Shown piece by piece: positions 6,142 to 55,934 of a stretch of 64,000 nt of DNA. The DNA is taken from IMG/VR virus record IMGVR_UViG_2541047873_000001; one strand, 5' to 3'. The stretch is from a virus (taxonomy: Duplodnaviria; Heunggongvirae; Uroviricota; Caudoviricetes). The position numbers and the translations under genes are program-made. A model generated the notes under the pieces. The model was not told where the DNA came from. It ran no database searches and saw only the letters and a list, made by a program, of their open reading frames with translations. The first letter of the stretch is position 1. Every line of letters begins with the position of its first letter.

Positions 6142-9100
6142 TTGAACAAGTCAGTTACTTCCGCGCTATCCGAAGCAGCAGACATTAACAGTGTTATTGC
6201 GCTGGTTTCTTCATTAGAGAGGCGAGAAACACGCCAGGGGCGCAGTAGTTACGTAGTCACCAGTAAAGGGGCAGAGGTAAAGACGGCTTTTAAGGTCGTT
6301 GATGCCAGCAGTCTGATCATTTCGAACAACCTTGACGGTACGATTAATCCGGCCTTCCCGGAAGAACTCCAGCCACGTGACCGTACACGGCTATCCAGCA
6401 AACTCCAGGTTAACCGTATTGCCTCCAATTTACGCCCGGCACAATTAACGGATTCCGGCATGAGCAGCCACGGAGCGCCGATAGTTGGTCCGGACAACGT
6501 TGTTGAATCCGGCAACGGAAGGAGCATGGGTATCTGGCGTGCCTATGAGCAAGGGCAGGCGGATGAATATCGCCAGTACCTGATCGATCATGCAAAAGAG
6601 TTTGGTCTGAATCCTGACGACATTTCACAAATGTCTATGCCCGTATTGGTGCGCGAAAGACTCACTGATGTTGATCGTGCGCAGTTCGCCCGCGATTCAA
6701 ACATCAGCGATCTGCAAGAGATGGCTGCAAGTGAAAAAGCGTATGCGGATGCGCAATTTCTCACTGAGAGCGTCATGGCGCTATTTAATCCTTCAGATGA
6801 TGGGAATCTACTGGCGCGGTCCAATGATGCGTTTATTCGTGCGTTTTTGCGCGAAATAGGTGATACGGCGACGGCAGGTTTGCTTACAGCCGATGGGCGT
6901 CCAACGAAACAACTTATCGACCGCATCCAGAATGCAATTTTTGCCAAAGCGTACAAGGATGAAAGGCTTGTTCGGTTGGTGGCGGAAGAGCCAGATCCGG
7001 AAATGCGTAACATCCTTACCGCATTAAATACGGCAGCCAGCGATTTTGCGCAAATGCAGTCGCTTTCAGGTGATGTTCACCATGACACGGTAACCGGACT
7101 GGTAGACGGTATAGAGCAATTGAATGGTCTGGATAAACAGGCTATTGCCGCGCTACAGGAAGCAATTAACCTTGTTCGTGAAGCAAAAGATAACGGTCAG
7201 GCAGTAGAAGAGGTGATCGCACAGCGTGGATTGTTTGGAGATAGCACTCCGGAAGCAGAAGCGCTTGCTCTGTTTATTGTTGCCAACAACCGAAGCGCTA
7301 AGCGAATGGGGGCAGCTTTCAAGAAACTGGCGCAAAAAATTAACGATGAACTTATTCACCAGCAACAAGCGTTAGGCGATATGTTCGGCGGCGGAGATGT
7401 CGATCTGCGTAGCATTTTATCTGCCGTTTCTGATGAAATTGAGGCTGAGTATGGCGAAGGTAAAGGGCTTAATTTCGCCATGTTCGAATCGGTTTCGGGA
7501 GATGTCGAACCATACATTTCAAAGCTAATTGCTGATGCGACCAGCGTGGAGGACTTGATCCGAATCGTGAAGGCGTCAGAAAAAATTAAGGAGTCCGCAA
7601 AAAAAATAAAGCGCAATGTATTTTTGGAACTTGGTTTTTATATTCGCAATGTCACCGTTAATGAGATTAAGGCGTGGGCTAAACGTTATGGATACAGCAA
7701 CGCTGTGTTAACAACGATGTTATTGTCTTATCAACGCAGCAATTTTTATGCTAACGCACTGCGTGACGCGATTGAAAAAGGAGATGAAGCTCCTTCACTC
7801 GCAGATGAAAGAAATATTGATTGTGACATTGAAACGTTTTGCAATATGTCAGAAGAAGGCGTGCCCGCTGAACAATTTATACGTGTTTTACATAATGCAG
7901 CAAAACATATTCCTGATGACTTTAGCATTGATGAATTGCGCAATGGTTGTCTTGTTTGGTTAGGTAACTATTTAAAATCTCCAGCGTCTATTGCAGAGAA
8001 AACAGCTTTAAGATTTAGAAAGGAAATGAATAAAGCTGGAAGCGCAGAAGAGATGGTGCGCATAATCCAAAATACTTTGAAGTTATTCAAAAAGAGCTTG
8101 CATAATATCAACGATATTATGGCGGCTGGTAGGAAAATAACAGCCAGCGTCGGAGTTAGCTCCGAACTAACGGCAGAGGAGATCGCTGATGCGTATATTG
8201 AGACACTTGTCAGGCTTAAGGAGATAGTGGAATTAGCAGAGCATTCCTCATATTACGGAATCAAGGAGCGCGTTGACTTTACTATAGAACAAATCAATAA
8301 AGTTAGGTCAAATAAGGAAAAACTCACTGACTACCTTGCTGAGGTTTTGCACCAGAATGATCATGGGATTGGATATGATCTGAAAAAAATGCTTGTTTTT
8401 AATCTGGACATACCGGAAGACTTGCAAGCAGAATTATATGAAATAGCTTCATTAACACGTGGACAAAAAGCCTATCCTAATGCGCTTGAAAATGTAGTAC
8501 ATAAAAAAGTCAGAGCCGCATTTGACATGATTCTTGAATCGTCAAATGTGTCACATGACCAGTCTAAGGAATGGAGTCGTGGGATTGCTATTTCTGATGA
8601 AGCAGAGCAGTTAAGTGGTCACGATAATGAAACTTTCTCCCGTAAAGCATACAGTATTCGCGAGACAATTGAAAAAGCCTATATTATTTCAGGAGGGACT
8701 TTATCTACATTAAAAAATATTAACCACAAGAACAATGTTCGTGCTTTTGCAAGTCGAAATGGGAATATAACAATTGATGCTAATAGTGATCATGAGCGTG
8801 TATTATGGCATGAAATAGGTCACCATATAGAACATTCAAATCCCCATCTATTGGAGAGGGCCAAAGCCTTCATTAAATCAAAAACTAACGGTAAAGTTTC
8901 TTATCATAATATTGGTAGCCGTGGCAGTGCTGAGTATTTGGTGCGAACCGACCTAAGTCATGGATATATGTCTAAAATTTATATGGAAAATACGGTAAGT
9001 TCTGTCAGCGGCAGATTTATATCAAAGCCACCTGCATTAAGCAATTGCAGGGCGACTGAGATTTTTTCTATGGCCTTGCAGATGTATGCCGATCCTGAGC

Positions 9101-9183
9101 AGGCGACTAACTCTGTATTAAACAATGACGGCGTGCTGGAATTTTTCTTGGGATGTATGAAGGAGTTGCAAAATGAAGTATAG
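6142..9183 (+). CDS. Large DdrB-like protein
   Basis: 1013-aa ORF after a short hairpin (6051-6076); size and position fit P1 DdrB; no catalytic motif recognised. Confidence 0.45.
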   Translation: MNKSVTSALSEAADINSVIALVSSLERRETRQGRSSYVVTSKGAEVKTAFKVVDASSLIISNNLDGTINPAFPEELQPRDRTRLSSKLQVNRIASNLRPAQLTDSGMSSHGAPIVGPDNVVESGNGRSMGIWRAYEQGQADEYRQYLIDHAKEFGLNPDDISQMSMPVLVRERLTDVDRAQFARDSNISDLQEMAASEKAYADAQFLTESVMALFNPSDDGNLLARSNDAFIRAFLREIGDTATAGLLTADGRPTKQLIDRIQNAIFAKAYKDERLVRLVAEEPDPEMRNILTALNTAASDFAQMQSLSGDVHHDTVTGLVDGIEQLNGLDKQAIAALQEAINLVREAKDNGQAVEEVIAQRGLFGDSTPEAEALALFIVANNRSAKRMGAAFKKLAQKINDELIHQQQALGDMFGGGDVDLRSILSAVSDEIEAEYGEGKGLNFAMFESVSGDVEPYISKLIADATSVEDLIRIVKASEKIKESAKKIKRNVFLELGFYIRNVTVNEIKAWAKRYGYSNAVLTTMLLSYQRSNFYANALRDAIEKGDEAPSLADERNIDCDIETFCNMSEEGVPAEQFIRVLHNAAKHIPDDFSIDELRNGCLVWLGNYLKSPASIAEKTALRFRKEMNKAGSAEEMVRIIQNTLKLFKKSLHNINDIMAAGRKITASVGVSSELTAEEIADAYIETLVRLKEIVELAEHSSYYGIKERVDFTIEQINKVRSNKEKLTDYLAEVLHQNDHGIGYDLKKMLVFNLDIPEDLQAELYEIASLTRGQKAYPNALENVVHKKVRAAFDMILESSNVSHDQSKEWSRGIAISDEAEQLSGHDNETFSRKAYSIRETIEKAYIISGGTLSTLKNINHKNNVRAFASRNGNITIDANSDHERVLWHEIGHHIEHSNPHLLERAKAFIKSKTNGKVSYHNIGSRGSAEYLVRTDLSHGYMSKIYMENTVSSVSGRFISKPPALSNCRATEIFSMALQMYADPEQATNSVLNNDGVLEFFLGCMKELQNEV

Positions 9184-14284: not shown

Positions 14285-14520
14285 TTATATTCATGCCGTC
14301 GTAGCAAATTCTGCGACCAGGTTTGACAGCCTGAATACTTACGCGGACAACCGCACATTTCCGATATTGCGGTATTTTTGTGTCCGTAAAACCACGTTAC
14401 GCCCGAATTATGGTGGGGCGTGATGGGGAGGCTTCGGCCTGCTGGTTTCGTAAGTGCCAGTCTGTCAACCCTGTCACGTCCTGCCACCTGTTTGACAGCG
14501 GGTCGCAGGTTGTTTATCAA
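14285..14520 (+). ncRNA. Candidate C4-like antisense RNA or immI leader (approximate bounds)
   Basis: ORF-free leader before icd with a UUCG-loop hairpin (gaggcttcggcctg) and repeated ttgacag / ctgtcaa complementary elements, resembling the P1 c4-icd-ant layout. Confidence 0.3.
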
Positions 14521-52055: not shown

Positions 52056-52160
52056 GAAAACACACAGTTGCGCCCTGGCATTATCGTGGGGTATATTTCT
52101 ACGGCACCTTAGAAAAACGGGTGCCGGGATTGGAACCCCGGATAATGCAAAAGGCGACAC

Positions 52161-52184
52161 AGACGCCGAAAGCGTCTTTTTTTG
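52161..52184 (+). terminator. Rho-independent terminator
   Basis: agacgccgaaagcgtct hairpin plus a T7 run. Confidence 0.6.
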
Positions 52185-52199
52185 TGTCATGCCATCGCA

Positions 52200-52345
52200 C
52201 AGCCATGCGTAGCGTTTAGCTCAGAGATCAATGGTAGTGCTGGCTGGGCTGCCGAAAGGCAGGCCGGTTCCCTTTTGCGCCGGTAGTTCCAACCCAGTCA
52301 GTGCTACCGCCATTGAGATTGGAACCTCACGCGGTAGCTCCTTAA
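52200..52345 (+). ncRNA. Candidate C4-like antisense RNA or immI leader, second copy (approximate bounds)
   Basis: GAAA-loop hairpin ggctgccgaaaggcagcc-like and elements complementary to the icd RBS region (ggaggctgcc); same architecture as 14285..14520. Confidence 0.3.
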
Positions 52346-52368: not shown

Positions 52369-52584
52369 ATGGCTACTATCCCTACCCCAACTCATTCTGA
52401 ATTTATCTGGCGTTTCTATTCCTGCCAAAAACACCTCTATATCTGCGTAATGGCTGCTACCGAAGCAGAGGCGCGCTCATACCTTCCCGAAGAACCCTGT
52501 ATTTTTGCTGCTCGCTTCACTCTTGATGCGATGGAGATCCTCAATTACTGGAATCTGCCGATGAACTGCGTGGAGGTGCACTGA
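52369..52584 (+). CDS. icd: Icd-like cell division inhibitor, second copy
   Basis: 71 aa, paralog of 14538..14762; overlaps the start of the second Ant gene. Confidence 0.55.
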   Translation: MATIPTPTHSEFIWRFYSCQKHLYICVMAATEAEARSYLPEEPCIFAARFTLDAMEILNYWNLPMNCVEVH

Positions 52585-53525
52585 TGAATCTGTCCATCTC
52601 TCAAAAAGCGACAATGACCAGCATTGAGATCGCGGAACTGGTGGGAAGTCGTCACTCTGATGTTAAACGCAGCATCGAAAGACTTGTTGCTAAAGGAGTT
52701 ATCCAACATACGCCATTGGCTACAGTTGAGAATAATCAATCACTTAGCCCTAATAAATACACAAAAGCCTATTTCTTCGAAGGCGAACAAGGCAAGCGCG
52801 ATAGTATTATCGTCGTCGCGCAGCTCTCTCCGGAATTCACCGCCCGGCTGGTGGACCGCTGGCGCGAACTGGAGAATGTCAGGGGACCGTTAAAATCAAA
52901 AGCCGAAATCCTGGCTGAAATGGCGCAAATGCATCTTGAGCATGAACGCAGGATCAACGCCGTAAATGCCCAGGTAGCCGAGGTATCGGCACAAGTGTCC
53001 AGGGTCACCGAAACACTTGAGCAGATCAAGAAAGGCAATATTCCAGAAGGCTACATTGGCTATCGCCAGTTGGCGGCAAAATGCGGCCTGACTGAAGCCA
53101 AATGCCGCAACCTGGTCAACGCTTACCGGATACCCACTGATACGCATGAGTTTTTAACTCCCGACGGTTTGCTTGCGCGACGCTCCATTGTGGCCCTGGC
53201 CCCCTTCCGGAAAGCCTTTAAGCAGGTTATGTCGGAGGCAGAACCACGTAACAAACGCTGGTATCATCCCAGGATGGGGCTATTTCAGGCCATTCACCAT
53301 CCTGTGCCTGAAAGTCCAAAGGCAAACCTGTCGTTGCATACCGCCAGAGAGAAGATTAAAACAGGGTATGCAACCGTATGCCGTCGAGCATCCTGGCCTG
53401 AAAGTGTCTGGGTATGGCCCGAAAGAGGCTCACGGAAAAACTGGCGCACCATTCGCGACGGCAAGATCTGTGCGATTGATTTACAGCCAGAAGATGTAGC
53501 AGCGACCGACTGGATTGTTAGTTAA
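52584..53525 (+). CDS. ant: Antirepressor (Rha/Ant family) fused to a C-terminal DUF2829-like module
   Basis: Rha-type N-terminus; 56-bp block identical to the first ant; C-terminus TVCRRASWPESVWVWP...AATDWIVS. Confidence 0.7.
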   Translation: MNLSISQKATMTSIEIAELVGSRHSDVKRSIERLVAKGVIQHTPLATVENNQSLSPNKYTKAYFFEGEQGKRDSIIVVAQLSPEFTARLVDRWRELENVRGPLKSKAEILAEMAQMHLEHERRINAVNAQVAEVSAQVSRVTETLEQIKKGNIPEGYIGYRQLAAKCGLTEAKCRNLVNAYRIPTDTHEFLTPDGLLARRSIVALAPFRKAFKQVMSEAEPRNKRWYHPRMGLFQAIHHPVPESPKANLSLHTAREKIKTGYATVCRRASWPESVWVWPERGSRKNWRTIRDGKICAIDLQPEDVAATDWIVS

Positions 53526-53563: not shown

Positions 53564-53902
53564 GTGACCGGACACAGCAAAATGTATGCCACGAAAAAAA
53601 TTGATTTCACTTATTCTTCCGCCACAATTGAGCGGCGCTTCACCCTCATTAGAGAGTTGGAACTGTCAAAAGTCTGGTATCAAATTCTACTGGATGAAGA
53701 GTTCTCACTGATGATAATGGCTAAAAAAGAAGCAATGCCGAATGACCGGCATAAAGTCATTGCCAGCCTTGACCTGGTGACAAACAGATACTGGGAGACA
53801 GAGGAACTGCGTGAAGCGGGAGTAATTCGTGACCTGATGGAGAGTTCCGTTCCCCGCCGCTATCGTGCGGGAAACGAAATCTCCGTGATTAAAGGGGCTT
53901 AA
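53564..53902 (+). CDS. Hypothetical protein
   Basis: 112 aa; start ambiguous (53564 or 53582). Confidence 0.35.
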   Translation: MTGHSKMYATKKIDFTYSSATIERRFTLIRELELSKVWYQILLDEEFSLMIMAKKEAMPNDRHKVIASLDLVTNRYWETEELREAGVIRDLMESSVPRRYRAGNEISVIKGA

Positions 53903-54342
53903 AGCTCACCAGCACGCTGTTTTTCAAGCGTAGATTTAACATTGGGCGCTTTCCCTTTAAAAGAATGGAAAGTGCCACATTTTTCTGTTTTAACCTCGCG
54001 CAGAGCTTCGCCATCGGCGTTCTGCCATTGATGAGATAACGTCATATCACCGCGAGAAGGAACATCCAGCGAGTACAACGTGTAAGTTCCCCCCATCTCG
54101 GCATACTCCTGGAACACATAGCTCATTACGTCAGATTCAGTTTTCCGGTGCGCGTTATCAACCTTATTCCCATTCAGAAATATGGCGTTCGGATAGATTT
54201 TTATATCAAACCTACCGCACTTTACCTGCAAATTCCCAGCATTAGCAATCAAAGGAAAAAACATTAATGCCGCTATAGCCAGCTTATTCAAGTTTGATGT
54301 CTTTGTTGAAGAAAATGGTTTCTCTTTTTTTATGCGTATCAT
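53899..54342 (-). CDS. Exported protein with signal peptide
   Basis: ATG at 54342 with GGAG RBS; N-terminus MIRIKKEK...LAIAALMFFPLIANA is signal-peptide-like. Confidence 0.4.
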   Translation of the reverse strand: MIRIKKEKPFSSTKTSNLNKLAIAALMFFPLIANAGNLQVKCGRFDIKIYPNAIFLNGNKVDNAHRKTESDVMSYVFQEYAEMGGTYTLYSLDVPSRGDMTLSHQWQNADGEALREVKTEKCGTFHSFKGKAPNVKSTLEKQRAGEL

Positions 54343-54385
54343 TTCATTAACTCCAGACATTGTTGTCTTTTCATCCAATTTGAGG

Positions 54386-55015
54386 TTAATTAGTACAATT
54401 CATTTTTGCAGCGACTTCGGCTACCCCACGATCAATGTAAGGCTGCTCACTTAATATCTTTTGGATCTCACTACGAATGCATTCCGCTGTAGGTTGCTTA
54501 GGTGCTTGTTTTTGCTTCGCGGATCGTTCAAGTTCCATCATGTTATTGAATCCTGCCACATCACTTTGCCGAAGCATCCCTTTCCGGATAAGAAACTGCT
54601 GCCCTTCAGGCACCCAAGCCAGCATATACAAAGGCTGCAATAGATCTCCCATTCCTTGCTGACGATAAAGCTCAAACTGCAACACGCCGTTACTTAACAC
54701 CGACATTGTGTCTTTGGTGGAATACCCTGTCTTTTGTATGGCTTTGCCTGTTTCATCTGCTGCATATGCAAATACACAGAACTCAATGTTGCTTTTAAAG
54801 AATGGCTCTACAGGTTTCAGCGGGATATTTTCTTTCTGGCAATAGTTTGAAACTTCATCAGGCGTATAGTTTGTTTTGGCGTTTCGCAACACCTTCAGCC
54901 CAGCCTCATACTTTGCAGGTAACGCGCCTGCATAGGCAGCATTAAGAGAAACTCCCCCCAATATAACCGCGAGCACTGCTCCCAAAACCCTTAACTTCAC
55001 AAAACCATCCTTCAT
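54386..55015 (-). CDS. Exported protein with signal peptide
   Basis: ATG at 55015; N-terminus MKDGFVKLRVLGAVLAVILGGVSLNAAYA is signal-peptide-like. Confidence 0.4.
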   Translation of the reverse strand: MKDGFVKLRVLGAVLAVILGGVSLNAAYAGALPAKYEAGLKVLRNAKTNYTPDEVSNYCQKENIPLKPVEPFFKSNIEFCVFAYAADETGKAIQKTGYSTKDTMSVLSNGVLQFELYRQQGMGDLLQPLYMLAWVPEGQQFLIRKGMLRQSDVAGFNNMMELERSAKQKQAPKQPTAECIRSEIQKILSEQPYIDRGVAEVAAKMNCTN

Positions 55016-55280
55016 GTAAACAAACTGAAGTTTTATGTTACAAAAACAAACATCTACGCCAAAATGACTTAGGCCAAATTCAGCGCGAATAAAAAAATCA
55101 AAAAAATTGTTGACACTATTCTGGAAATCACAATCTGGACAAAATCCATTGCGCAAACGGCTCCCGTTGAAGGTTCTTTTGACGACTAACTTTCAGCCGA
55201 TGCGCGGTAGGGAGTCATAACGCCAAAGCAGGCCGCCATGTGCGGCCTTTTTTTGTGCCTGCTATCGTGGAGTAAAAGCC

Positions 55281-55934
55281 ATGCAAAAGATCGCAATATT
55301 CAGTCTTTCTACTAACAAGCCGCTGATGGCTACGGCAGTCCTGAAAGACGGCGCGCTTGTAATTGACAAAGTAAAGCCGCTCCCTGCATCTGCTATTGAA
55401 CAAAAACGAAAAATTCCACCAGCAATTGCCGAGCTGCGTAAAAGTGAATTTAAGGTGCTGGTTGACGAAATCACGCCAACCATTTCAGCCGGTACAGGTG
55501 CCAGCCAGGTAACATTAAAAACACGGCACGCCGACGGCAGAGCAGCGATCATTGTCGGCATGGAGAGATACCGGGAGCTGAAACTACAAAGGCTGCTATC
55601 CCTGCCTGACAAGAACAAAGGGGCATTTGAGATCCCCGACTCTATCGTCGATACCGAATACAACGGCAACGGTGAAGAGGTTTATCGAGTTAACTGGCAA
55701 GATATCCGACCAGAGCACATCCTGATGATTCTGTGCTGCTATGCAACGGTATACCACAATGTTGCCAGCGCGGATTACCTGAAACAAATGACAGGAGCGG
55801 TAGAGAAAGAAAACAAAGCAGGGATAATGGCCTCGTTCCTGTCCATTATCAGCGATCAAAAAGCTAAAGCAGGAAATACCCAACCAAAATCGCTGGCCGG
55901 GCAAGTAATTGATGAAGATACGGTGATACTTTAA
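55281..55934 (+). CDS. Hypothetical protein
   Basis: 217 aa; preceded by a hairpin plus T-run at 55230-55255. Confidence 0.4.
   Translation: MQKIAIFSLSTNKPLMATAVLKDGALVIDKVKPLPASAIEQKRKIPPAIAELRKSEFKVLVDEITPTISAGTGASQVTLKTRHADGRAAIIVGMERYRELKLQRLLSLPDKNKGAFEIPDSIVDTEYNGNGEEVYRVNWQDIRPEHILMILCCYATVYHNVASADYLKQMTGAVEKENKAGIMASFLSIISDQKAKAGNTQPKSLAGQVIDEDTVIL

Follow-up and report, generated by a model that had tools for sequence, protein, structure and literature searches.

An exported two-gene module beside mat in a D6-like phage-plasmid: a candidate for Sim-type superinfection exclusion

Llp of T5, Cor of phi80 and N15, gp15 of HK97 and SieA of P22 are prophage envelope proteins that stop the DNA entry of related phages. 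Spackle (Sp) of T4 is a small soluble periplasmic protein made with a signal peptide, and it inhibits the tail lysozyme gp5 when a superinfecting phage penetrates the cell wall. In phage P1, the genes simA, simB and simC adjoin c4-icd-ant, and all three products carry a signal peptide. P1 Sim is the precedent for an exported and processed protein that is dispensable for lytic growth and blocks superinfection. The phenotype has been known since 1982, and no mechanism for it was found in the literature searched. According to Kliem and Dreiseikelmann (1989), as cited in PMC8546580, sim gives superinfection exclusion. In PMC6799933, simA and simC are reported to be missing from D6-like plasmids, and two Salmonella elements are reported to diverge at two places, sit and the region of simB. 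In this study, we describe two adjacent minus-strand open reading frames (ORFs), here called A and B, at 53899-55015 of a D6-like, P1-family Escherichia phage-plasmid. The window is the whole 64-kb stretch of DNA that was analysed. Both products are very probably exported to the periplasm and jointly form a functional unit, and we tentatively read this unit as a superinfection-exclusion module of the Sim type. An earlier note on this DNA had the strand, the place and the quoted N-termini of the two leftward ORFs right. It took the element for a phage-plasmid, which agrees with the relationship to D6, the plasmid matches of ~90 kb and the C4 RNA described below.

The features of the two genes are listed here.

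54386..55000, minus strand: ORF A, predicted exported protein modelled as all-helical, precursor of 204 aa, mature form of 180 aa, phrog_12786 family
55008..55012, minus strand: Shine-Dalgarno sequence AAGGA of A, 7 nt upstream of the GTG, read from the sequence
54929..55000, minus strand: predicted signal peptide of A, 24 aa, MKLRVLGAVLAVILGGVSLNAAYA, predicted cleavage AYA-G, from n/h/c-region analysis
53899..54342, minus strand: ORF B, predicted exported protein modelled as a small beta-barrel, precursor of 147 aa, mature form of 112 aa, phrog_13864 family
54351..54354, minus strand: Shine-Dalgarno sequence GGAG of B, 8 nt upstream of the ATG
54238..54342, minus strand: predicted signal peptide of B, 35 aa, with a long lysine-rich n-region, h-region LAIAALMFFPLI, predicted cleavage ANA-G

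The conserved start of A is the GTG at 55000, which was preferred to an alternative upstream ATG at 55015 because that ATG is absent in the E. fergusonii orthologue. ORF B starts at the ATG at 54342. Public models of A with 253-256 aa (P0001, P0002, P0005) begin at an upstream TTG and take in an extra stretch at 55016-55156 on the minus strand. Since indels of 1 and 2 bases break this frame in relatives, these models are over-extended by ~50 residues. The ratio of nonsynonymous to synonymous substitution (dN/dS), calculated by the Nei-Gojobori method, was 0.05 for B and 0.14-0.26 for A. By this measure, A and B are real genes under purifying selection.

The earlier note had attributed classical signal peptides to both proteins, and the n-, h- and c-region features, scored by hand, were found in all 18 members of the two families that were scored. 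Each of these leaders has a positive n-region with at most one acidic residue (zero in 16 of the 18), a 10-residue hydrophobic core with a mean Kyte-Doolittle value of 2.2-4.0, and small-X-small cleavage candidates directly ahead of the conserved mature start. The leader of B ends in LAIAALMFFPLIANA, followed by G (...FFPLIANA-G). In the A family, the signal-peptide feature is kept in 14 of 14 aligned members though the sequences diverge, and leaders that vary in sequence while keeping their n/h/c properties point to selection for export and not for sequence. C54 and C75 are invariant in A, and a second, C-terminal cysteine pair is present in most members; C42 and C122 are invariant in B. These invariant cysteines fit disulfide-bonded periplasmic proteins. 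Neither a transmembrane segment nor a lipobox was found in A or B of the window. From the sequences, we strongly infer that A and B undergo Sec export and cleavage by signal peptidase I, giving soluble disulfide-bonded products in the periplasm.

The leader observations also bear on the idea that A and B are virion or assembly components misread as exported. Their neighbours are tail, baseplate and maturation genes, but cleavable signal peptides are conserved throughout both families, as are the disulfide-type cysteines. Moreover, neither protein has similarity to any structural PHROG, and D6 is a viable phage without A and B. This explanation is therefore extremely improbable, and homology to a virion structural protein, which the earlier note had named as the result that would speak against its proposal, did not appear; the matches were to PHROGs of unknown function only. 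In four A homologues (P0003, P0004, P0006, P0007) the leader has ...(M/L)(L/M)GC... where the window has ...LGG.... The LGC of these leaders may be a lipobox, and those alleles may thus be lipoproteins while the protein of the window is soluble.

Both families are small and uncharacterised. Protein A matched phrog_12786 (unknown function, 5.8e-118) and B matched phrog_13864 (unknown function, 3.8e-88). Among 5.8 billion proteins, the A family comprises 7 clusters and the B family 11, and a profile search with A gave 21 representatives among 1.84 billion proteins. A tblastn search of A against 50,697 phage records gave no match. Nothing above threshold was found for A or B in Pfam, NCBIfam or PADLOC, which is in line with the absence of recognisable enzymatic motifs given in the earlier note, and the A-family and B-family profiles found nothing among PDB sequences. 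With PADLOC-DB 2.0, no match was obtained for A, B or either flanking gene. The invariant positions of A in the family alignment include a G-Y-S-x-(K)-D-T motif, P123, G133 and D147; neither an invariant glutamate nor another obvious catalytic set was seen in this alignment. The structure models suggest that A is a 20-kDa all-helical protein and B a 12.6-kDa small beta-barrel. In the AlphaFold2 (AF2) model of A, the signal peptide is disordered. A fold search with the A model gave no match, and as far as the model can tell, the fold of A seems to have no known relatives. The same search with the B model gave generic barrels only and no specific match.

Several observations point to a joint action of A and B. 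In the listed rows that the two tblastn tables have in common, A and B occur together on 39 plasmids, with a gap of 47-78 bp in 36 of them and 204 bp in one; in NZ_CP074151, A and B overlap in a manner consistent with a fusion. Even in a Vibrio parahaemolyticus plasmid, where identity has fallen to ~29% and B is frameshifted, the two genes are still neighbours. The profile search also found two independent single-chain A::B fusions, P0023 (277 aa) and P0026 (281 aa), each of which consists of a signal peptide, the A core and a full B domain that replaces the C-terminal module of A. P0023 lies in the same slot beside mat on an 83.6-kb D6-like contig. The kept adjacency and the two fusions argue strongly for joint action. 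The earlier note had treated the ORFs as two separate candidates, and here the fusions led us to revise it in favour of one two-part unit. Judging from these gene arrangements, A and B very probably constitute one two-gene accessory operon whose products work as a functional unit, most simply as a complex.

The slot occupied by A and B links them to the sim region of P1. The neighbouring features are given below; A and B are flanked by the immI immunity operon and mat, both of which are on the other strand.

52227-52314: C4 antisense RNA, Rfam match
52369-52584: icd-like ORF
52584-53525: antirepressor (ant) ORF
53564-53902, plus strand: pmgF-like ORF
55281-55934: homologue of mat (maturation control)

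The immI operon (C4 RNA, icd, ant) directly adjoins A and B in convergent orientation, and simB is not there. In phage D6, this slot, bounded by mat and by the genes on the immI side, is filled by orf79, a SimB-like gene. When the 1.9-kb locus was used as query, the match of D6 was limited to the right-hand 23%, at 81% identity, and in the DNA from mat through the first codons of A, D6 and the window have 86% identity. The D6 orf79 continues with a B-type leader: it has the motif GGAGTTAATGAAATG, which lies at the Shine-Dalgarno sequence of B, and '..IK..K.FSS' in common with B. In plasmid pS143-4, this SimB-like gene comes after A in place of B. Since the contents of the mat-side slot vary (A with B, A::B, A with a SimB-like gene, or a SimB-like gene alone as in D6), we consider it a cassette site.

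The partnership of A with SimB was found repeatedly. A 94.8-kb P1-like contig of Citrobacter freundii has, in order, an exported 123-aa protein, A, SimB, icd and a KilA-N antirepressor. In contig L011, an exported YfjT-like protein, SimB and A follow one another in this order, and icd and an ORF6N antirepressor lie farther downstream, past an oppositely oriented 436-aa gene. In contig L021, SimB is followed by an A::B fusion, and this SimB matches P1 SimB at 3e-18. In total, A-family genes neighbour SimB homologues in four independent contexts, often near c4-icd-ant. The sim slot is thus a shuffling site for at least three unrelated exported families, namely SimB-type, A and B.

The A/B slot accumulates varied cargo. 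In Salmonella pSL26_91 (L025, 3017-5009), a gene annotated as dCTP deaminase stands beside A and B, together with 357-aa and 101-aa genes on the opposite strand. This cluster was considered as a known defence system and dropped, as it had no PADLOC match. The contents of the slot also bear on a role of A and B in the lytic cycle, in which they would act in the envelope on endolysin or holin control, release or lysis from without. Their place between genes with morphogenetic and maturation labels (pmgF-like, mat) is in favour of such a role, and P1-family phages have several poorly understood periplasmic proteins, e.g., ppfA and mlp. However, the slot is freely refilled with unrelated cargo, such as the SimB-like gene alone in D6 or the dCTP deaminase cluster of pSL26_91, unlike a core lysis function. 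The proteins of the window have no membrane anchor and no lipobox and are therefore not spanins, and A-family genes also occur on plasmids without visible phage genes nearby. On balance, a lytic-cycle role seems quite improbable.

The 1.9-kb query matched 128 plasmid records, mostly non-mobilisable and ~90 kb in size, from E. coli, Shigella and Salmonella, and the best match was NZ_CP104667 (98% identity over 83% of the query). The A/B locus was found in 79 of 5,426 complete E. coli genomes (~1.5%), and it was plasmid-borne in 80 of 87 places; the exact allele combination of the window was found in none of the 5,426. Another explanation would be that A and B have an envelope role in the plasmid lifestyle, for instance in keeping out related plasmids by entry or surface exclusion, or in a maintenance-linked function. 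Genes of the two families lie directly beside Rep3/RepB initiators in L010, L014 (a plasmid typed conjugative), L017, L021 and L024, but closeness to rep may merely mark the accessory region of small replicons. The carriers were typed as non-mobilisable in 65 of 67 cases for A and 75 of 87 for B, and the entry-exclusion proteins known to us are membrane-anchored or lipoproteins, so we regard a plasmid-exclusion role as very improbable.

The two genes differ strongly in their rate of change. Identities to NZ_CP104667, pB2C_96 and E. fergusonii NZ_CP099330, in this order, were calculated per segment.

Mature B: 99, 95 and 88.5%
A core: 89, 64 and 71%
A C-terminal module: 47, 48 and 68%
B leader (nucleotide identity): 58, 59 and 80%
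mat: 99.8, 78 and 74.5%

The leader of B (58-80%) has thus been exchanged independently of the mature part (88-99%), and the low identities of the A C-terminal module are attributed to a swap between two alternative disulfide-containing modules. Recombination breakpoints were located at the leader/mature boundary and at the boundary between the core and the C-terminal module. The dN values were 0.22-0.30 for A, 0.01-0.03 for B and 0.08-0.14 for mat, so that the dN of A is ~10 times that of B and 2-4 times that of mat. Such fast change and mosaicism, as seen in A, is the usual pattern of specificity genes in exclusion or defence, and a variable A beside a constant B is what is expected if A carries the specificity.

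Taken together, the slot identity, the shared leader DNA, the partnership with SimB, the proximity of immI, the accessory status and the diversification of A suggest that A and B are a Sim-type envelope module that blocks related superinfecting phages after adsorption. We put this forward tentatively, at somewhat less than an even chance. The pair and the P1 sim operon would draw on one modular toolkit of exported proteins, with a common slot, leader DNA and SimB partner. The pair would shield the envelope of the lysogen by periplasmic superinfection exclusion after adsorption, as described for P1 Sim, with the fast-evolving mosaic A as the specificity element and the conserved B as its constant partner. 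More speculatively, the target might be a periplasm-exposed ejection component of the incoming phage, e.g., the Sit injection transglycosylase, and B might inhibit such a Sit-type ejection enzyme in the way that Spackle of T4 acts on gp5. In the 64-kb window, no ORF of the size of sit was found. A wider proposal, which we hold to be distinctly unlikely, is that A, B and SimB-type proteins belong to a single combinatorial system of periplasmic exclusion and can replace one another in it. In this system, B would inhibit a Sit-type transglycosylase and A would set the phage range. New combinations would then arise by recombination at the junction of signal peptide and mature part behind the shared leader DNA.

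A number of points weigh against a Sim-type function. The 64-kb window contains no homologue of SimA, SimB or SimC, and no homology of A or B to these three proteins was detected by BLASTP or hhalign. Against SimC (phrog_14355), BLASTP gave nothing below E=7, and hhalign comparison of family profiles gave a probability of <1%. Against the SimB family (phrog_14329), with its core DFSK-DCNS...YNQ...C-G-Y-SDG, both BLASTP and hhalign were negative, whereas true SimB homologues align well among themselves, the family including P1 SimB and the N-terminal domain of D6 orf79. The comparison with P1 Sim made in the earlier note is apt, as the three P1 sim genes encode proteins with signal peptides beside c4-icd-ant, but it does not extend to homology. 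The fold search with A and B gave no match to any known exclusion protein. The structure models were built from shallow alignments (7 and 4 sequences), and 1-2 of the five models per run were confident. The case is one of guilt by association, and the associate, SimB, is itself a 'putative accessory' in P1. To our knowledge, the P1 phenotype is credited to the sim gene now named simC alone. Genes of the A and B families also occur outside the immunity context, beside Rep3/RepB and on one plasmid typed conjugative, and B is found alone beside Hcp-type cargo in Serratia and Enterobacter kobei. A strict promoter scan found no promoter of A-B and a looser one gave weak matches only, and the operator consensus of P1 C1 was not found in the window.

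The lone B genes keep another explanation alive, according to which A and B are periplasmic immunity proteins or inhibitors against non-phage toxins (type VI effectors, colicins or lysozyme-like enzymes) and thus serve lysogenic conversion. On Serratia and Enterobacter kobei plasmids of phage-plasmid size, lone B-family genes lie near Hcp, DUF2645, DUF1493 and STM2901-type cargo, and a B adjacent to Hcp is a possible effector/immunity setting. In Serratia pJSRIV002_3 (L016, 2983-5004), B is beside Hcp, and next come a 232-aa protein that lacks a signal peptide and a DUF2645 protein; in Enterobacter kobei (L018, 2929-4953), B is beside Hcp with DUF1493 and STM2901-family genes near. The 232-aa neighbour was considered as an effector of the type VI secretion system (T6SS) resembling soluble lytic transglycosylases (SLT-like) and was dropped, as neither Pfam nor PDB gave a match. 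However, the elements of Escherichia, Shigella and Salmonella have these genes in the region of immunity, sim and mat and not among toxin genes. There was no PADLOC match, and the signature motifs of PliC and MliC are not visible in the B alignment, of which no formal scan was made. We consider toxin immunity rather unlikely, and Sim-type exclusion is the reading that we prefer.

The transcription signals of the locus were also inspected. Two elements were listed for the A-B operon.

55035..55062, minus strand: candidate sigma-70 promoter of the A-B operon, TTGGCG, 16-nt spacer, TAACAT, 8 of 12 matches, from a loose scan
53735..53752, minus strand: terminator-like hairpin, possible 3' end of the A-B transcript, consensus match only

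The -10 element of the candidate promoter falls in the block TTTTGTAACATAAAAC, which is invariant in four plasmids and D6; the promoter is a weak candidate. A pattern resembling P1 late promoters was not above chance at the window. The hairpin is the only one that could serve the A-B transcript, and it is located within the convergent pmgF-like gene, ~150 nt past the end of B. Gene B (minus strand) and the pmgF-like gene (plus strand) have overlapping stop codons at 53899-53902. The A-B and pmgF-side operons thus converge without a terminator between them, and their transcripts may overlap in antisense.

Between A and mat, the stretch 55111-55260 (plus strand) is 93-100% identical in plasmids whose mat is only 75-78% identical. 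It contains a perfect TTGACA at 55112-55117, and the sole plus-strand intrinsic terminator of the region, at 55230-55248 followed by a T-run, lies 23 nt before the ATG of mat. The predicted RNA fold has -41.4 kcal/mol (z -1.67). No Rfam family was found for this stretch, and it has no similarity to the isrK-like RNA of the window. The stretch may encode a small RNA, act as leader or attenuator of mat, or stop read-through from immI that would be antisense to B and A.

Elsewhere in the window, there are two C4 antisense RNA genes, one at 14406-14491 and the one of immI at 52227-52314, together with an a1b1 target element at 14285-14337 and an isrK-like RNA at 52104-52182. It seems that the element has two immunity loci of the C4 RNA type. 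A plus-strand ORF of 1013 aa at 6142-9183 has a DdrB-like domain of the ParB superfamily (PF18763, 9.7e-42). Its first ~1.3 kb is common among D6-like plasmids, and the 3' 1.7 kb was found in just four records, none of which is the plasmid with the best match to the A/B locus. The ORF is one more mosaic gene and shows that the element is a patchwork. The 1013-aa ORF was also considered as sit and was ruled out by its DdrB-like domain.

Phage-plasmids of the P1 type occur widely in Enterobacteriaceae and bring resistance genes with them, and the control of entry into occupied cells matters for their spread. The replacement of simB by 'hypothetical proteins' is already in print, without analysis, and two of the five were identified here as A and B. 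As far as we found, four points are new: A and B as a pair, their fusions, SimB as a recurrent partner of A, and cassette exchange at the level of the leader. If A and B exclude phages, they would be a new non-homologous exclusion module with an architecture of specific and constant parts that is genetically easy to test, and if they do not, they still represent a conserved periplasmic unit of two proteins. The combinatorial proposal, if true, would give a molecular handle on Sim-type exclusion. The A/B locus offers a clean and cheap experimental entry to the unexplained Sim phenomenon.

In comparison with known systems, the PliC/MliC lysozyme inhibitors and the periplasmic immunity proteins of T6SS and contact-dependent inhibition (CDI) have no sequence relationship to A and B, and for PliC/MliC, B has neither a specific fold match nor a family signature. 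The traits of spanins, the anchor of the i-spanin and the lipobox of the o-spanin, were not found in A and B of the window, which have cleavable leaders and soluble domains. Virion structural PHROG or Pfam families gave no match; A and B matched only phrog_12786 and phrog_13864. Llp, Cor, gp15 and SieA are lipoproteins or integral membrane proteins, whereas A and B of the window are without lipobox or membrane helix. T4 Spackle is a single protein, while A and B are a pair.

The D6 orf79 product (SimB-like, 277-298 aa, phrog_13054) comes closer by location. Like A and B, it occupies the identical slot beside mat; its upstream DNA and first codons are as in A, its leader is as in B, and it pairs with A in pS143-4. 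The mature part, a SimB domain with a 160-aa extension, is unrelated to A and B by BLASTP and hhalign. In the P1 sim operon, SimC has a weak OB-fold (oligonucleotide/oligosaccharide-binding, tRNA_anti-like) signal, in contrast to the all-helical A and the barrel of B in our models, and sim lies upstream of immI and diverges from it, whereas A and B lie downstream and converge. The cleavable Sec signal peptide and periplasmic location of SimC are predicted for A and B as well. Both loci are clusters of genes for small Sec-exported proteins that have separate signal peptides, and both consist of dispensable accessory genes of a P1-family phage-plasmid. Like the sim genes, A and B lie next to c4-icd-ant, but in convergent orientation and without simB. 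If the exclusion function is confirmed, A and B would be a non-homologous, two-part form of prophage superinfection exclusion.

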